Source: a phage. From it: a DNA stretch of 64,000 bases. The notes beneath the pieces were generated by a model. It made no database searches and was not told where the DNA came from. It worked only from the letters and a program-made list of their open reading frames with translations. The translations under genes were made by a program, and so were the position numbers. Shown here piece after piece: positions 2,875-37,531 of this stretch. The stretch is taken from the sequence record PX423614.1; one strand, 5' to 3'. How positions within the stretch are numbered: the stretch's first letter is position 1; every line of letters begins with the position of its first letter.

Positions 2875-2939
2875 TCTTGCCCTTTCGCAAAGATTCACGC
2901 GAGATAAGGGAAAGAATTAAAAGAAGATGATAAAAAGAG

Positions 2940-2967
2940 TTGACAAGCTAACACGATGTGTTAAGCT
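2940..2967 (+). promoter_or_regulatory. sigma70-like early promoter with A-rich UP-like element
   Basis: TTGACA (2940-2945), 16-bp spacer, TGt + TAAGCT (2962-2967); A-rich tract upstream. Confidence 0.55.
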
Positions 2968-2981
2968 GAAAGTGTAGTAAC

Positions 2982-2997
2982 CGCTCTTTAAAAATAT
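2982..2997 (+). promoter_or_regulatory. boxA-like element CGCTCTTTAAAAATAT
   Basis: third copy of the CGCTCTTTAA core about 10 nt downstream of the predicted start site. Confidence 0.45.
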
Positions 2998-3097
2998 GAA
3001 TCAGAAAGTTAAGCGCAACCGCTTACAATCTTGTTAATCCAATACGCGATTAACTGGTCATTCGAAAGAATAGACGAGAAAAAGATTTAAAAAGTGG

Positions 3098-3126
3098 TTG
3101 ACACGCTAAACAGGATGATTCATAAT
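3098..3126 (+). promoter_or_regulatory. strong sigma70 consensus-like early promoter
   Basis: TTGACA (3098-3103), 17-bp spacer, CATAAT (3121-3126); A/T-rich upstream. Confidence 0.6.
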
Positions 3127-3207
3127 GAGCACTCACTAGGCAACTAGTGAAACGTGAAACCACGGCGAACGGTGGCGGGAAGTGAGAAAGCACTTCGATA
3201 GATTTAC

Positions 3208-3227
3208 CGCTCTTTAACAATTTAAAC
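3208..3227 (+). promoter_or_regulatory. rrn-type boxA-like element CGCTCTTTAACAATTTAAAC
   Basis: matches the rrn boxA core GCTCTTTAACAATTT exactly; preceded by hairpin CCACGGCGAACGGTGG. Confidence 0.55.
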
Positions 3228-3229
3228 TT

Positions 3230-4039
3230 CTTCCTATATCGGTTGAACATGGTGAGCAATAATAACCATTGCAAGCTATGCCAGATAAAACGATGTAAGG
3301 CGCTCTAGAGTATCAGAGGAAACCGCTTTACAATCCCTTACTGGAAACGACACCACTGATAAATGAAGTTATTGAGTACATGCAAGGCTTAAGCTAATCG
3401 CCTACGGTTAAAGGGTAGCGGCGGCGGTGCTAGTAAAGTGCTACAATAATAGACGTTTATCGGGGTAGTTAAGTCCGACGAATTAACGCTCAATAGCGAG
3501 CGGCGGGAGGGGGTTAAAGAATGGCAAATTGCTATTTAACAATAAGGTTTAAGCGTGAGTATTTACTAAGTGAGTGTTTTGATACACATCAATAGCGATG
3601 TGAGTACATAAACATGTAGTGTAGTAAATCGTGAGAGAGATAATCAAACGCCAAAGTATCAGGCGGTCAATGACTCTTTACCATATGCTTTCCCATAGTA
3701 GGCGATAAGCAGGTTTAGAGAGTTGATATAAAAGGGTATCACGAAGCGAAAGCAAAGTAAATAGTAATGCCATCGGCTAGAAATTTAGCTAATTAGAGAT
3801 GGACGCGCTTGCCTTATTGTGATGATTGATCATCGCTGGCAAATCGGCTTTGTTTATAGCGATTAGTTAAATCCACCAGATGAAACATCACGGCAAGTTA
3901 GGCGGCAAGGTTAACTCCTGATAAGACCGCCTGATTTACCACTGGTTACTAGTAGTTAGTGATTAGTGTTAAGTCATTGTGACTTGAATAGCTCATAGAG
4001 AGCGGCGCATAGTGCGTTTACAATTGAAAGGTGAATATC
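3230..4039 (+). other. ~800-nt untranslated leader / candidate non-coding RNA region downstream of tandem promoter-boxA modules
   Basis: no ORF of 60 aa or more on either strand in the track; recurring motif GC(G/T)TTTACAAT at about 3019, 3339 and 4011; GCGGCGG-rich segments. Confidence 0.35.
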
Positions 4040-9868: not shown

Positions 9869-9944
9869 GCACCCTTAGCTCAATGGACAGAGCAGCGACC
9901 TTCTAAGTCGTTGGTTACAGGTTCGAATCCTGTAGGGTGCACCA
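9869..9944 (+). tRNA. tRNA-Arg (anticodon UCU)
   Basis: cloverleaf: acceptor GCACCCT/AGGGTGC, D-stem GCTC/GAGC, anticodon stem-loop with TCT at positions 34-36, T-arm ACAGG-TTCGAAT-CCTGT, encoded 3' CCA. Confidence 0.85.
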
Positions 9945-33038: not shown

Positions 33039-33776
33039 ATGAGTCGTAGAGAATCTCGGAAAGCATCACGGAGAGAATTACGTCGTGAAGCTCTCGTCAC
33101 CAAGAAAGGAAAGCGGGAATTTGAAGAAGTAGTTCTTGCTAAGCCGGTAGTACCTCAGAACCAATTCCAGAGTGAGCTGCTTGATGCAATTAAAACCAAA
33201 CAGGTTGTATTCACAGATGCTCCTGCTGGTTGTGGTAAGACCTTCGTAATTACTTCTACAGTAATTGATGCTCTGAAGAGTGGGAAGATTGAGAAGATTA
33301 TCCTAAGCCGGCCTGCTGTTGGTATGGGTAATAGTCTTGGATTACTTCCCGGTGGGCTTCGTGAGAAGTTTGAACCATACCTAATGCCAATCGTTGATGT
33401 TATTACTCAGCGCTACGGTAAAGGTTTCTACGAATGTCAAGTAGGTAATGGTAATATTGAGTTCGTACCTCTGGAATATCTACGTGGTCGCTCGTTCAAC
33501 GATGCTGTCGTGATTGTTGATGAGTTCCAGAACACTACTCCTGATGAAGCATATTCAATCATGACACGTCTTGGTGAAACCTCTCAGATGTTCTGCATGG
33601 GGGACACTAACCAGCACGACATGCGTGGTGAGAGCGGTCTTGATTGGGCTACTGATTTCATCTACCGTCACCAGTTATTTGAGTTTGCCGCTCTAGTAGA
33701 TGGCGAATCAGATGATATTGTTCGTTCAGGTTTCTGTAAAGCTATTGTTAAAGCAATGGAATCTGAAAAATCATAA
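33039..33776 (+). CDS. phoH: PhoH-like ATPase
   Basis: Walker A DAPAGCGKTF, Walker B VIVDEFQN and overall PhoH-family pattern. Confidence 0.7.
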   Translation: MSRRESRKASRRELRREALVTKKGKREFEEVVLAKPVVPQNQFQSELLDAIKTKQVVFTDAPAGCGKTFVITSTVIDALKSGKIEKIILSRPAVGMGNSLGLLPGGLREKFEPYLMPIVDVITQRYGKGFYECQVGNGNIEFVPLEYLRGRSFNDAVVIVDEFQNTTPDEAYSIMTRLGETSQMFCMGDTNQHDMRGESGLDWATDFIYRHQLFEFAALVDGESDDIVRSGFCKAIVKAMESEKS

Positions 33777-33823
33777 ACATAATGTATACTCCTTAGTGTA
33801 CACTGATATGTTAAGGAGTTGTG

Positions 33824-34138
33824 ATGACCGATAAGGCGAAACGTGATTATGCACAAGAACGAAGAACTGCAATCGCAAGGGGTGAGACCGGCGTTGGTAG
33901 CAAGAGCGGAGATGCTCAGCGCCACCGTGCACGTCGCATCGTTGAAAAGCGCGATGGAAAAGCTGCTGTCCGAGGTAAAGATGTTGGACACAAACGATCA
34001 ATCAAGTCGGGAGGTTCTAATGCGTCAAGTAACTTACGTGTTGAATCAGTCTCTCGAAATCGCTCGAACGGCGGCAAAAGTGGAGATCGTGCTGGAAAAT
34101 CAGCAGGCGGTCGCAAAGGAGCTTTAAGCTCAAGTTGA
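33824..34138 (+). CDS. highly basic Arg/Lys/Gly-rich protein
   Basis: AAGGAG RBS 9 nt before ATG; TAATGTATA motif 36 bp upstream; an alternative overlapping frame (33843-34127) also stays open. Confidence 0.45.
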   Translation: MTDKAKRDYAQERRTAIARGETGVGSKSGDAQRHRARRIVEKRDGKAAVRGKDVGHKRSIKSGGSNASSNLRVESVSRNRSNGGKSGDRAGKSAGGRKGALSSS

Positions 34139-34194: not shown

Positions 34195-34446
34195 ATGTCT
34201 AAAGTAACTTATATCACTGTAACTGATTTCCTCCCTTCTCTGAACACAACTGAGAGCTATACTTTTCCTGTAGAAAATGTTACAAGCTCTGTTGAAATGA
34301 TTAAGTTTAATCAAACAACAGCTCGTACTAACGTGGCTCTTCGTGGTCCTGATGGCAAGTTCATCTCCTTCCGTGATAAGGTTGTTCCTAAGCGTATTGC
34401 TAAATCTATTGAAAATCTGAAACCTTTCCCTAACTTTGGTGCATAA
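34195..34446 (+). CDS. small protein, tandem paralog 1 (TARTNV...GKF...NLKPFP)
   Basis: shares TARTNVALRGPDGKFISFRD and NLKPFP with the next gene. Confidence 0.5.
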   Translation: MSKVTYITVTDFLPSLNTTESYTFPVENVTSSVEMIKFNQTTARTNVALRGPDGKFISFRDKVVPKRIAKSIENLKPFPNFGA

Positions 34447-34447
34447 T

Positions 34448-34705
34448 ATGAAGATTAGCTTAATCCAAATTCGTGATCATCTCTTTAATGGTGACGCTCA
34501 GACTCATGACTACAAGGTTAATCAAGGACAACACCCTACCAATCACCTGATTGGAGGGATTTCTTTATTACCTAATAAAACAGCACGGACTAATGTAATG
34601 ATTCGTGGTAAGGATGGTAAATTCCTCTCTTATCGTGACCCTGAAATCTGTGCTATTGTTCGTACAGCCATGAACAACCTAAAACCATTCCCGACAGTGG
34701 AGTAA
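34448..34705 (+). CDS. small protein, tandem paralog 2
   Basis: TARTNVMIRGKDGKFLSYRD...NLKPFP. Confidence 0.5.
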   Translation: MKISLIQIRDHLFNGDAQTHDYKVNQGQHPTNHLIGGISLLPNKTARTNVMIRGKDGKFLSYRDPEICAIVRTAMNNLKPFPTVE

Positions 34706-35075: not shown

Positions 35076-36770
35076 GTGATGGATAACCCTGATAAGTTAC
35101 CTTTCATAACGGAGATGACAGTCGCTGATATAATCTCAAAACAGGCGAAGCATGGAGTCAACTTCAACAGAAGAAACGCTCGGTGGTTTGTTCACCTTCT
35201 CAAAGAGATTATTGTCAATATTGATAAAGAACTGATTCCTCTCCTCCCCAAAATGCGGGTGGATGGTTCAACTTATTCCAAACCTTTTAAGAAGTCCGGT
35301 GCTTTACAGAAGTGGCCTCAACTCTATTGTGATAGGGTTGGTCTTAAAAGAGAAGATATCGGTGGGGCGTTTACTTGCGTTGAGTATGTAGACTTTGACC
35401 CATCAAAAGATGCACGTATCAAAGAAGCCTTGATGGATGAAGGTTTTATACCTCCAGAGTGGAATTATTCTAAGAAACCTTGGAATACTTTTGAAATTCG
35501 TAAAGCTATGAAGAAGTATGGTACATACTCTGCATGGTATTCTGCTTGGATTCGAGGTAACGCTAAAGAGAAACAGACAGCAGAGATGATAGATGCTGAT
35601 ATCCGAAGGTTTTTGGATAAACACTTCCGTTATCATACTGTCAATTATATGAAAGCCTATGTCAGCGGTTTAGGTCTTAACCCTAACAGGAAGAAGCCTG
35701 TAACCTTTGATGAAATCAAAAAAGTTTTGGCTACATCAAACAAGTGGCCTACAGCCCCTACAAACCTTGAGGAGACTCTTGAAGAGGGGCTTGGGGGTGA
35801 GCTAGGGGGTGTAGGAAGTTTGCTTAAGAGACGCGTTGTAGCGGCTCACAGGCTAGGTTTGATTAGCGGGCTTATCGACAAGGAACGTAAAGATGGTAAG
35901 TTGTCCGCCGAAGCTAATAGCTGCGCTACTCCGACATTTCGTTTTAAACATCGCATTGTTGTTAATATTCCTTCTCGCGGTTTGTTTGGTCACGAGTGCC
36001 GCAGTCTTTTTCAATCTGACTATTCCTCAGACGATAGTCATAACCATCCTTTCATCATTACCAACCATATCCCTGATGGGTGTTACGTACGAAAGGGTAC
36101 TAACATTATCTATGAAATGGGAAAACCGGGCAAGAAAGACAAACCAATAGGTGCTTATAAATTTTATGTACCTGCTGGTCGTGAAGTCTTCTTAGGTTAT
36201 GATGGCTCTGGTCTTGAGCTGAGGATGCTCGCTCACTACCTTATCAAAGAGTGTCGTGAGATGCTCGCTGAAGCAGAGCGGGAAAACAACCCAGCTAAGA
36301 AACGGGAAGCTGAACGCGGTCTAGCTTCTGCTGTTATGTACAGAGATATTCTTTTAGAAGGAGATATTCACTCACATAACCAAAAACTTGCTGGCCTTCC
36401 TACTCGTGATAATGCTAAAACATTTATCTACGCATTCAACTACGGAGCTGGTGACGCTAAGTTAGGAAGCATCGTAGGTGGTGGCTCTGACGAAGGGGCT
36501 ATCATGAGAGCAAGATTCTTAGCAGAGAATCCTTGTATTGCAATCCTTATTGAACGTATGACAGAGAAAGCACAAAGTGGATATATCTACGGTGTGGATG
36601 GACGTCGTATTACAATGAGAAGAGATGCAACTGGAAAGGTTATGGTCCATAAAGCCTTAAATACGCTCCTACAGAGCGCTGGGGCGATTGTTATGAAGTA
36701 TGCAATGCTATTCCTCAATAAATGGATTGAGCGTGATGGTGTTCGTTGTGCGAAGGTTATCGACATGCAT
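35076..36770 (+). CDS. DNA polymerase family A polymerase domain, exon 1 (thumb, palm, fingers through motif-C His)
   Basis: aligns with T7 DNA polymerase and Klenow: motif A DGSGLELR, motif B RDNAKTFIYAFNYGAG, KALNTLLQSAGA; exon ends at the motif-C His codon CAT at 36768-36770. Confidence 0.8.
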
Positions 36771-37378
36771 AAACTTTCATTGTGCATGTAAAAGTTGGTG
36801 AACTCGGTGAAACCCTACCATTAAGTTGGGGGCAATACCGAGCTAAGCTATTAGGAGATGATATGGCTAAGAAAACTCTTGTTTTGGAAACAACCGAAAC
36901 AGGGTGTATCATCCCTATCTCACACAAACTTAACAAAGATGGTTATTTCAGAAAAGTAATAGATGGCAAATGGGTCATGTATCATAGATATGTTTGGGAA
37001 GAATCTTTTGGTTCTATTCCTGATGGTTATGAAATAAATCACAAATGCAAGAATAGGGCTTGTTCCAATCTTGAGCACTTAGAAATGATTGAAGGTTCAG
37101 AACATGCAATAGAATCAAACACTGGAAGAAATGGAGATAGACAAGAAGCTGCAAGGCTTTATTGGCTAGAAACAGAATGCTCTGGTGTACATCTTGCAGA
37201 GAAGTTTGGTGTGAGCTTCGGAATCGGTTGTAGATGGATTCGGAAGTGGAAAGTGTAGAGACTATCCTAAGGGAGTAGGGGGTTAACAGGGAAACCCTCG
37301 AAGCGCCAACAACAGCAAATTAGCTATGCTGTTATGATATAGTCCGATACCCGAAGTAATTTGGGAATAACATAAATG
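36771..37378 (+). mobile_element. group I intron interrupting the polymerase gene at motif C
   Basis: 5' exon ends in U that can pair with intron GUGCAU to form P1 with a U-G wobble; intron ends in G; R-like AGACTA and S-like GATATAGTCC core elements; exon 2 resumes with DEGQFTVHRDDV matching Klenow DELVFEVHKDDV. Confidence 0.65.
36864..37258 (+). CDS. intron-encoded HNH homing endonuclease
   Basis: GYEINHKCKNRACSNLEHLE HNH motif; TAGGAG RBS; located inside the intron. Confidence 0.65.
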
Positions 37379-37531
37379 GATGAAGGCCAGTTCACTGTAC
37401 ATCGTGATGATGTTAATATTCTGCGCACTCTCACTGAAGAGTGTGTCCGTAAAGCAGGGGAATACCTCAAGATGGAATGTCCTCTTGCATCAGATTGTAA
37501 GATTGGGCTTAACTGGAATCATACTCACTAA
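37379..37531 (+). CDS. DNA polymerase family A, exon 2 (C-terminal 50 aa)
   Basis: DEGQFTVHRDDVNIL...GLNWNHTH aligns with the polymerase C-terminus (T7 ...GPNWAICH). Confidence 0.65.
   Translation, partial: DEGQFTVHRDDVNILRTLTEECVRKAGEYLKMECPLASDCKIGLNWNHTH

Follow-up and report, generated by a model that had tools for sequence, protein, structure and literature searches.

A probable mobile IA2-like group I intron with an HNH endonuclease gene at motif C in a Kuravirus-like coliphage's DNA polymerase gene

Introduction

Self-splicing introns are attributed to the phages PhiI and W31 at Pol I site 881 (Bonocora & Shub 2004, cited in PMC3428280). At least three polymerase insertion sites are listed there, 881 being the site of PhiI/W31 (PMC3428280). 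For phage K1F, a putative group I intron of the polymerase gene, together with a homing endonuclease, has been described (PMC4925675). The present analysis deals with sequence record PX423614.1, a phage DNA of 64,000 nucleotides (nt) referred to as the window, i.e., the whole stretch analysed, and with an insert at 36771-37378 which interrupts its DNA polymerase gene and is very probably a mobile IA2-like group I intron of the family to which the gene 5 intron of T7-like phages belongs. Splicing and homing were reportedly shown by experiment for the PhiI intron (Bonocora & Shub 2004 and 2009), whose mobility is said to depend on the HNH enzyme I-TslI (AAV53690); the free-standing gene 5.3 product of T3, an I-TslI homologue, reportedly cuts the same polymerase site.

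The DNA around the insert is 96.7% identical to that of Escherichia phage vB_EcoP_SU7 and 95% identical to that of ECBP2, two podophages of the C3 morphotype assigned to the Gordonclarkvirinae (Suseptimavirus/Kuravirus). Judged by this likeness, the window phage is a Kuravirus/Suseptimavirus-like coliphage of the Gordonclarkvirinae. The family A DNA polymerase of this group has 614 amino acids (aa) and no fused exonuclease domains (PMC9965538). SU7 and ECBP2 are annotated with two "DNA polymerase" genes and an endonuclease, with no intron. An intron is mentioned neither in the SU7 genome paper nor in a 2023 review of Kuravirus-like phages, and a search of the literature on phiEco32, Kuravirus, SU7 and ECBP2 found no description of one.

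The interrupted polymerase gene

The insert and the two parts of the polymerase gene are arranged as follows.

35079-36770 (+): exon 1 of the family A DNA polymerase gene, 564 codons, 1692 nt, ending ...VIDMH, taken from the table of open reading frames (ORFs)
36771-37378 (+): predicted group I intron, IA2-like, 608 nt, first bases AAACUU, terminal G at 37378, absent from intron-less alleles
37379-37531 (+): exon 2 of the DNA polymerase gene, 153 nt, 50 codons, DEGQFTVHRDDV...NWNHTH, and the stop

The insert separates the His codon from the Asp-Glu codons of polymerase motif C. A first-pass annotation had ended exon 1 at T36770, where the sequence indeed reads ...GTT ATC GAC ATG CAT (V I D M H), and had predicted a stop 7 codons further on. 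Read without splicing, the ORF that starts at 35076/35079 continues through KLSLCM to a TAA as seventh codon and ends at 36791, giving 570 aa with the C-terminus ...VIDMHKLSLCM*. Exon 2 had been placed from 37379, and G37379 opens the codons GAT GAA GGC CAG of DEGQFTVHRDDV; a 51-codon ORF begins at ATG 37376.

These boundaries, which had been drawn by eye, turned out to be exact to the base. The intron-less alleles of the relatives HC-25922 and Bas86 read ...GACATGCAT|GATGAAGG... (over a longer junction, ...ATTGACATGCAT|GATGAAGG...; across the insertion site, ...ATTGACATGCATGATGAAGGCCAG...) and lack exactly 36771-37378, i.e., 608 nt. Moving the boundary by 1 base either way is incompatible with both sequences, which also fix G37378 as the last base of an intron that had been said to end in G. 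Exon 1 is colinear with the intron-less polymerase coding sequence (CDS) of HC-25922 and Bas86, the 1845 nt of which equal the 1692 nt of 35079-36770 plus the 153 nt of 37379-37531. In a megablast comparison the relatives fell into two classes, with 11 records aligned throughout and many others aligned in two pieces with about 608 nt missing. IME267 counts, like HC-25922 and Bas86, as an intron-minus phage. The splice boundaries ...TGCAT|...G|GA(T/C)GA (His|Asp-Glu) are the same in the window and in 12 homologues.

The Pfam domain DNA_pol_A covers residues 361-564 of the exon 1 product and ends there at profile position 334 of 381. When the exons are joined in silico, its score rises from 52.8 bits (profile positions 143-334) to 83.8 bits (143-380 of 381), in agreement with the earlier statement that the His-Asp-Glu motif is whole only after splicing. 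The exon 2 product aligns with the C-termini of Klenow and T7 polymerase. Its proposed likeness to Klenow ...VHDELVFEVHKDDV... was recovered with phmmer, in which the joined polymerase aligns with the Klenow fragment unbroken over the junction (vidMHDEgqFtVHrDDV / imqVHDElvFeVHkDDV) down to the C-terminal NW..H. If spliced, the mRNA would read ...GACATGCAT|GATGAAGGCC at the junction and the peptide ...VIDMHDEGQFTVHR.

Over the last 100 nt of exon 1 the identity to the relatives is 98%. Over the first 60 nt of exon 2 it falls to 88% for each of them because of a cluster of 7 substitutions at 37414-37430, GTTAATATTCTGCGCACTCTC in the window against GTTAACAAACTTCGTACCCTC in SU7, HC-25922 and Bas86, with a single amino acid change (K to I). 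This cluster may be a recombination or co-conversion scar beside the intron.

The group I ribozyme core

For the structure test, the insertions of 12 other phages and that of the window were aligned with MAFFT after removal of the ORF interior. RNAalifold, which holds no knowledge of group I introns, returned P1 with the splice-site U-G pair, P3, P4, P5, P6 and P9. In the full model, which includes the pseudoknots P10 and P7, 99.0% of 593 cells are in standard pairs, whereas only 36-47% are paired in slid controls, in which the 3′ partners were moved by 1-3 columns. Two-sided (compensatory) changes occur at 13 pairs of this model, and none of 500 shuffles matched the observed pairing, the number of compensatory pairs or the covariation score. 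Together with the homology to the T7-like gene 5 intron, this pairing and the 13 compensatory pairs agree with the group I intron proposed in the first-pass annotation. Folded alone at minimum free energy (MFE), the ORF-deleted window RNA forms P1, P3, P4, P5, P7.2, P8 and P9 (z = -3.5). The core comprises P1, P10, P3-P9, P7.1 and P7.2, and there is no P2.

36765-36787 (+): P1, exon AUGCAU 36765-36770 with guide GUGCAU 36782-36787, U36770-G36782 at the 5′ splice site
36774-36781 (+): guide strand of P10, CUUUCAUU, with the first 8 nt of exon 2, GAUGAAGG 37379-37386
36794-36800 (+): 5′ strand of P3, GUUGGUG, with CGCCAAC 37304-37310
36803-36842 (+): P4 (36803-36809 with 36836-36842) around the P5 hairpin 36813-32; positions 60-139 of Rfam model RF00028 align here
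36843-36851 (+): 5′ strands of P6 (CU 36843-44 with AG 37252-53) and P6a (CUAU 36848-51 with GUGG 37246-49)
37260-37264 (+): 5′ strand of P7, GACUA, with UAGUC 37340-37344; pseudoknot with P3, 100% paired, invariant
37265-37299 (+): P7.1 (UCC-UAAG-GGA, 37265-74) and P7.2 (37278-37299)
37311-37333 (+): P8 hairpin, AACAGCA / UGCUGUU
37334-37344 (+): joining segment J8/7 and 3′ strand of P7 (S element), AUGAUAUAGUC, invariant in all homologues and the segment best matching RF00028
37350-37365 (+): P9 hairpin, CCCGAA-GUAA-UUUGGG, 100% paired, 4 of 6 pairs compensatory

Exon AUGCAU pairs with intron GUGCAU and forms a U-G pair at the splice site, as had been proposed from the window alone. P1 (6 base pairs, bp) is 100% paired in 12 sequences, and its outer pair is A-U in the Kuravirus-like phages and Vp_R1 and G-C in the T7-like phages, a compensatory change which follows the exon sequence. 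P10 measures 8 bp in the window and is 96% paired across the sequences, with 2 compensatory pairs, and its intron base varies with the synonymous choice of each host between GAA and GAG and between GAU and GAC. Such tracking of host codons is what marks a functional guide sequence.

Covariation is found in P3, P5, P6, P8, P7.2 and P9. P3 is 100% paired, with 4 of the 6 tested pairs compensatory, and was found both by RNAalifold and in the single-sequence MFE fold. P6 and P6a are also 100% paired, one P6 pair being compensatory (U-A vs C-G), and P5 bears a 9-nt extension confined to the Kuravirus-like clade. P8 and P7.2 were judged by folding each sequence because MAFFT lost their register between clades. 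By this approach, the P8 hairpin is present in every homologue with wholly different stems (CAGUC/GACUG, CAUGUA/UACAUG, CUGU/ACAG), and P7.2 keeps its pairing with stem sequences unlike between clades.

The R-like element GUAGAGACUAUCC (37255-37267) and the S-like element AUGAUAUAGUCC (37334-37345) noticed in the first reading are present, and P7 fits the conserved Rfam element GAUAUAGUC. P7.1 and P7.2 are extra hairpins typical of subgroup IA. The order and sequences of the motifs, together with these two hairpins, would place the intron in subgroup IA2 of the Michel-Westhof scheme as read here.

The HNH endonuclease gene

The insert had also been said to hold an HNH homing-endonuclease gene, and two features correspond to it.

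36853-36857 (+): Shine-Dalgarno sequence AGGAG, 5 nt before the ATG of the endonuclease gene
36863-37258 (+): HNH homing-endonuclease gene, ATG to TAG, 131 aa and stop, Pfam HNH_3, PHROG 6254

The 131-aa product matches Pfam HNH_3 at 46.8 bits (E 2.3e-12), well above the cut-off of 24.8, and PHROG 6254 'HNH endonuclease' at E 2e-43. A sequence search of the PDB with this protein gave nothing meaningful, the match obtained being a chance one to T-cell receptor beta at E 0.07. AGGAG or GGGAGG is kept at the position of the ribosome-binding site (RBS) in all 12 homologues. The last codons and the stop of the gene fall in P6a, P6 and J6/7, and because of this overlap the ORF is looped out of P6a.

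The HNH frame is intact in 13 of 13 introns (131-139 aa), as is the core (I/V)(N/D)HKC.NRAC.N..HL...H of the encoded proteins. Across these introns the ratio of nonsynonymous to synonymous substitution rates (dN/dS) is 0.04-0.14, with synonymous sites near saturation, and the gene is under purifying selection. Relative to PE006, the two ribozyme halves are 96.7% and 98.3% identical and the synonymous divergence (dS) of the ORF is about 1.1. The ribozyme halves are thus far better conserved than the synonymous sites of the ORF, which indicates constraint on the RNA.

In the MFE fold, AGCUAU 36846-36851 pairs with AUGGCU 36863-36868, which places the HNH start codon in a stem and AGGAG 36853-57 in its loop. 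The 5′ strand of this stem overlaps P6a (36848-51), and the two pairings are mutually exclusive. Vp_R1 and PT2 could form an equivalent stem, which is out of register in the T7-like introns. This hairpin could act as a translational attenuator, by analogy with the one described for I-TevI.

Proposed splicing and homing

We infer splicing, endonuclease activity and specificity, and homing of the window element from its sequence and its kinship. The polymerase gene would be transcribed as a single pre-mRNA, in which the intron RNA would fold into P1 and P3-P9. Free guanosine would attack after U36770, held by the guide GUGCAU in the U-G pair, and exon 1 would then attack after the terminal G37378 with exon 2 positioned by P10. 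The spliced mRNA would encode a 614-aa family A polymerase with the His-Asp-Glu of motif C intact. By analogy with I-TslI of PhiI, the 131-aa HNH enzyme, translated from its own RBS, would cut the intron-less alleles of co-infecting relatives near the insertion site, after which recombinational repair would give them a copy of the intron (homing).

Relatives and distribution

A sensitive blastn search with the 608-nt intron returned 48 records besides the Kuravirus-like phages. Most are T7-like (K1F, 13a, LNA7, VSG32, JeanTinguely, Bas102-104, Yersinia WX1/WX2, Aeromonas PT2 and others), and the matches outside this group include Vibrio phage Vp_R1 and short partial ones in a few unrelated phages. 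Full-length matches show 65-70% identity over 57-98% of the query (E 1e-13 to 3e-43) and always lie within or adjoining a DNA polymerase gene. For the gene 5 introns of K1F, 13a, JeanTinguely, Bas102 and others, 83-100% of the window intron is aligned; in the records of these four phages, gene 5 is a join of two pieces. Identity to the homologues is 80-89% in the ribozyme halves, except the 3′ half of Aeromonas PT2 (69.8%), while the ORF is about 70% identical in nucleotides and the HNH proteins are 55-63% identical in amino acids. Database searches with the HNH protein gave 106 homologues (E <= 1e-5), metagenomic ones included, and in all the loci inspected the HNH gene follows directly on a truncated DNA_pol_A gene and the splice-site motifs are the same. 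The first-pass annotation had called the insert a familiar type from T7-like phages, which was borne out in a stronger form, as the T7-like element is a sequence homologue at the identical His|Asp site. The window element is hence a homologue of the experimentally characterised T7-like gene 5 intron family and not a mere analogue.

Among records carrying this polymerase, the intron is present in 11 of 86. Exon 1 of the window is nearest to that of the intron-less Bas86 (99.1% and 97.3%) and to that of PAS59. The window intron is 99.7-100% identical to the SU7 intron, although exon 1 of SU7 is only 95.5-96.9% identical to that of the window, and PAS59 carries a PE006-type intron (HNH 78% identical in nucleotides) within a window-type polymerase. 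This patchy distribution and the incongruence between intron and exons are as homing with co-conversion predicts; general recombination could also contribute to the incongruence.

The introns of the three clades are about equidistant, whereas the host polymerases are not, that of the window being 34% identical to K1F (C-terminal 230 aa) and 49% identical to Vp_R1. It seems likely that one intron-endonuclease composite moved between unrelated phage families by targeting about 12 nt of motif C, (V/M)-H-D-E, with the P1 and P10 guides retuned to the synonymous codons of each host. The families involved would probably be the T7-like Autographiviridae, the Kuravirus-like Gordonclarkvirinae, the Grimontviridae through Vibrio phage Vp_R1, and that of an unclassified 189-kb metagenomic contig. 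There is also a good chance that these approximately 12 nt are the sole stretch common to the host polymerase genes at the DNA level. If this is true, such cross-family transfer provides a natural series for studying the jump range of homing elements and the later adaptation of their ribozymes.

The 189-kb metagenome contig (L015) has the same intron family at His|Asp (about 2900-3560), behind a polymerase exon 1 of 689 aa; its P7 would hold an A-C mismatch (GACUA vs UAGCC), and this copy may be degenerate or differently paired. The T7-like metagenomic contig L018 has the same HNH intron at His|Asp and, further upstream in that polymerase gene, another group I intron that bears no ORF (2250-2504; RF00028 43.2 bits, E 2.7e-9) and is missing from the close relative L017. 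In Bas86, a free-standing HNH gene (positions 1-335 of the Bas86 locus, compared with about 33776-33830 of the window) lies directly upstream of the counterpart of ORF 33821-34138. This position is occupied by PhoH in HC-25922, and the PhoH gene of the window lies at 33039-33776. The Bas86 gene is a further sign of endonuclease-gene turnover in this phage group.

Alternative explanations

Some observations count against an intron of this kind. Covariation is mute on P4, P7 and P7.1, which are always paired yet invariant, and P6a shows one-sided changes only, its pairing being compatible, not proven. The PhiI and W31 introns entered the comparison through the proxies K1F, 13a, JeanTinguely and Bas102. 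On the window, a permissive scan with RF00028 gave 26.7 bits at 37259-37366 (E 1e-4) and 14.3 bits at 36804-36868, under the gathering score of 50 bits, which is weak counter-evidence; at the gathering threshold, the Rfam hits of the whole window are limited to a tRNA. Finally, an ATG in frame with exon 2 stands at the intron 3′ end (37376-37378), and the 51-aa tail is annotated as a gene of its own in the GenBank records of SU7, ECBP2 and PE006, with an RBS and a separate 'DNA polymerase' CDS in SU7 and as a 'DNA polymerase-like protein' in PE006.

The Rfam scores may have another cause. RF00028 spans the whole of the homologous introns of K1F (35.7 bits) and Vp_R1 (34.9 bits), and the T4-type td intron, which is proven by experiment, had no match at E <= 0.01 in a permissive scan. 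Because the td intron gives no match, RF00028 detects phage group I introns with an ORF poorly and its gathering score is not a discriminating one for them. The td, K1F and Vp_R1 results together suggest that the gathering score is missed on account of the 400-nt ORF insertion and not for want of an intron.

The annotation of the tail as a separate gene would be correct if a free-standing HNH gene split the polymerase, no splicing took place, and the 570-aa part (...VIDMHKLSLCM) and the 51-aa part (from ATG 37376) were translated apart and assembled non-covalently. This is very improbable, the in-frame ATG at 37376 being the one argument for it. Such a split would part the His from the catalytic Asp-Glu of motif C, and the nominal RBS of the 51-aa ORF falls in the P9 stem. 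The HNH flanks are the best-conserved part of the element, at 80-89% across phages whose polymerases are 34% identical, and they fold into a full group I core in which 13 pairs are compensatory and the guides track the exon codons of the host. The Kuravirus-like introns and the metagenome locus L017 have the terminal AUG, which K1F, 13a and VSG32 lack; the T7-like homologues end ...GAAAG, and their records annotate a spliced gene. Separate translation of the tail was therefore rejected, on the non-conserved ATG and the covarying ribozyme flanks. Joining of the parts at the protein level, by an intein or in a 'fractured gene', has its precedents: inteins can be homing-endonuclease-associated insertions at polymerase active-site motifs, and fractured genes with split inteins around an endonuclease gene are known (PMC2677866). 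The insert, however, is not in one frame with the exons, as it meets a stop after 7 codons, and the HNH gene has a start and a stop codon to itself. Split-intein halves cannot be made of the 6 residues added after exon 1 and the 0 added before exon 2, and Pfam detected no intein or Hint domain in the proteins scanned. This explanation is extremely improbable and was discarded on the reading frames and the lack of a Hint domain.

A group I intron that splices but does not move is a different matter. In this case, the HNH protein would be inactive or kept for another role (intron folding, phage competition), and the intron would spread by vertical inheritance or ordinary recombination. It is true that the window HNH protein has CS at a place where 11 of 13 proteins, those of the window and SU7 being the exceptions, show the CC of HKC.NRACCN, and that general homologous recombination, a frequent event among these phages, could produce the intron/exon incongruence. 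An immobile intron is nevertheless unlikely in view of its patchy presence among close relatives and of the identical insertion site in the polymerases of at least 3 phage lineages. It also fits poorly with the strong purifying selection on an ORF whose synonymous sites are saturated. The preferred explanation hence remains a mobile group I intron that belongs to the T7-like gene 5 family.

Annotation and significance

The polymerase of the window phage, SU7, ECBP2, PE006, PAS59 and FH3, entered in the records as two genes on either side of an endonuclease, should be one spliced gene of 614 aa. The range of a well-studied family of mobile introns is extended to a second and a third lineage of phages, with enterobacteria and vibrios as hosts. 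Since culture collections already contain phages with and without the intron that are 95-99% identical, direct measurements of homing, co-conversion and marker exclusion could be made. The main value lies in the corrected annotation and in a convenient system for studying homing across phage families.

Other features of the window

Upstream of the polymerase region, 34196-34446 and 34448-34705 (+) are adjacent small paralogous genes with a common ...ARTNV.(L/I)RG.DGKF(I/L)S(F/Y)RD...NLKPFP; their counterparts in the relatives are annotated as hypothetical proteins only. The sole tRNA gene of the window is a tRNA-Arg with anticodon TCT at 9869-9944 (+), found by Rfam (73.2 bits) and ARAGORN.

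Comparison with known systems

In T3 and phiYeO3-12, a gene 5.3 homing endonuclease is encoded beside gene 5 (PMC4925675). This gene is free-standing and adjoins an intron-less gene 5, whereas the HNH gene of the window lies inside the intron; no gene 5.3-like gene was found beside the polymerase in the intron-less Kuravirus-like relatives inspected (HC-25922 and Bas86). The introns of SPO1, SP82 and Bastille (I-HmuI, I-HmuII and I-BasI) and of Pf-WMP3 (I-PfoP3I) resemble that of the window in being HNH-encoding group I introns of phage family A polymerase genes; they lie in conserved coding sequence and their enzymes are nicking enzymes (PMC3428280). They differ from the window in their insertion sites and in the architecture of the endonuclease, and blastn of the intron revealed no nucleotide homology to them.

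The T4 td intron, the archetype of the phage introns of subgroup IA2, which encodes I-TevI, has the same order of motifs as the window, GACUAUCC-loop-GGAGUAGGG...CGAA-P3'-P8-GAUAUAGUC, with near-identical core motifs. It also shares CAAU in J5/4, CUAA after P4, an ORF out of the P6 region, and P7.1 and P7.2. In contrast, a P2, a long P9 extension, a length of 1016 nt, a location in the thymidylate synthase gene and a GIY-YIG endonuclease are found in td only. Blastn of the intron gave no T4-like match and revealed no overall sequence homology to td.

The gene 5 introns of K1F and other T7-like phages share far more with the window. They interrupt the gene at the same point, His|Asp-Glu of motif C (Pol I 881|882), fall in the same length class (598-602 nt against 608 nt), and can be aligned with the window intron over 83-98% of its length at 65-70% nucleotide identity. 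In both, P2 is missing, a 131-aa HNH gene emerges from P6 and ends in J6/7, and P7.1 and P7.2 are present. The differences lie in the host, here one of the Gordonclarkvirinae whose polymerase has no exonuclease domains fused to it and shares about 34% of its residues with the T7-like enzyme over the aligned C-terminal region, in guide sequences retuned to the new exons, in the 9-nt extension of P5 and the shortened P7.2, and in the intron end, ...AAAUG in the window against ...GAAAG in the T7-like phages. No new kind of mechanism is involved, and the element is ordinary in kind and only unannotated in this phage group. As judged by this comparison, it is a new member of the known T7-like gene 5 family of group I introns with HNH genes.

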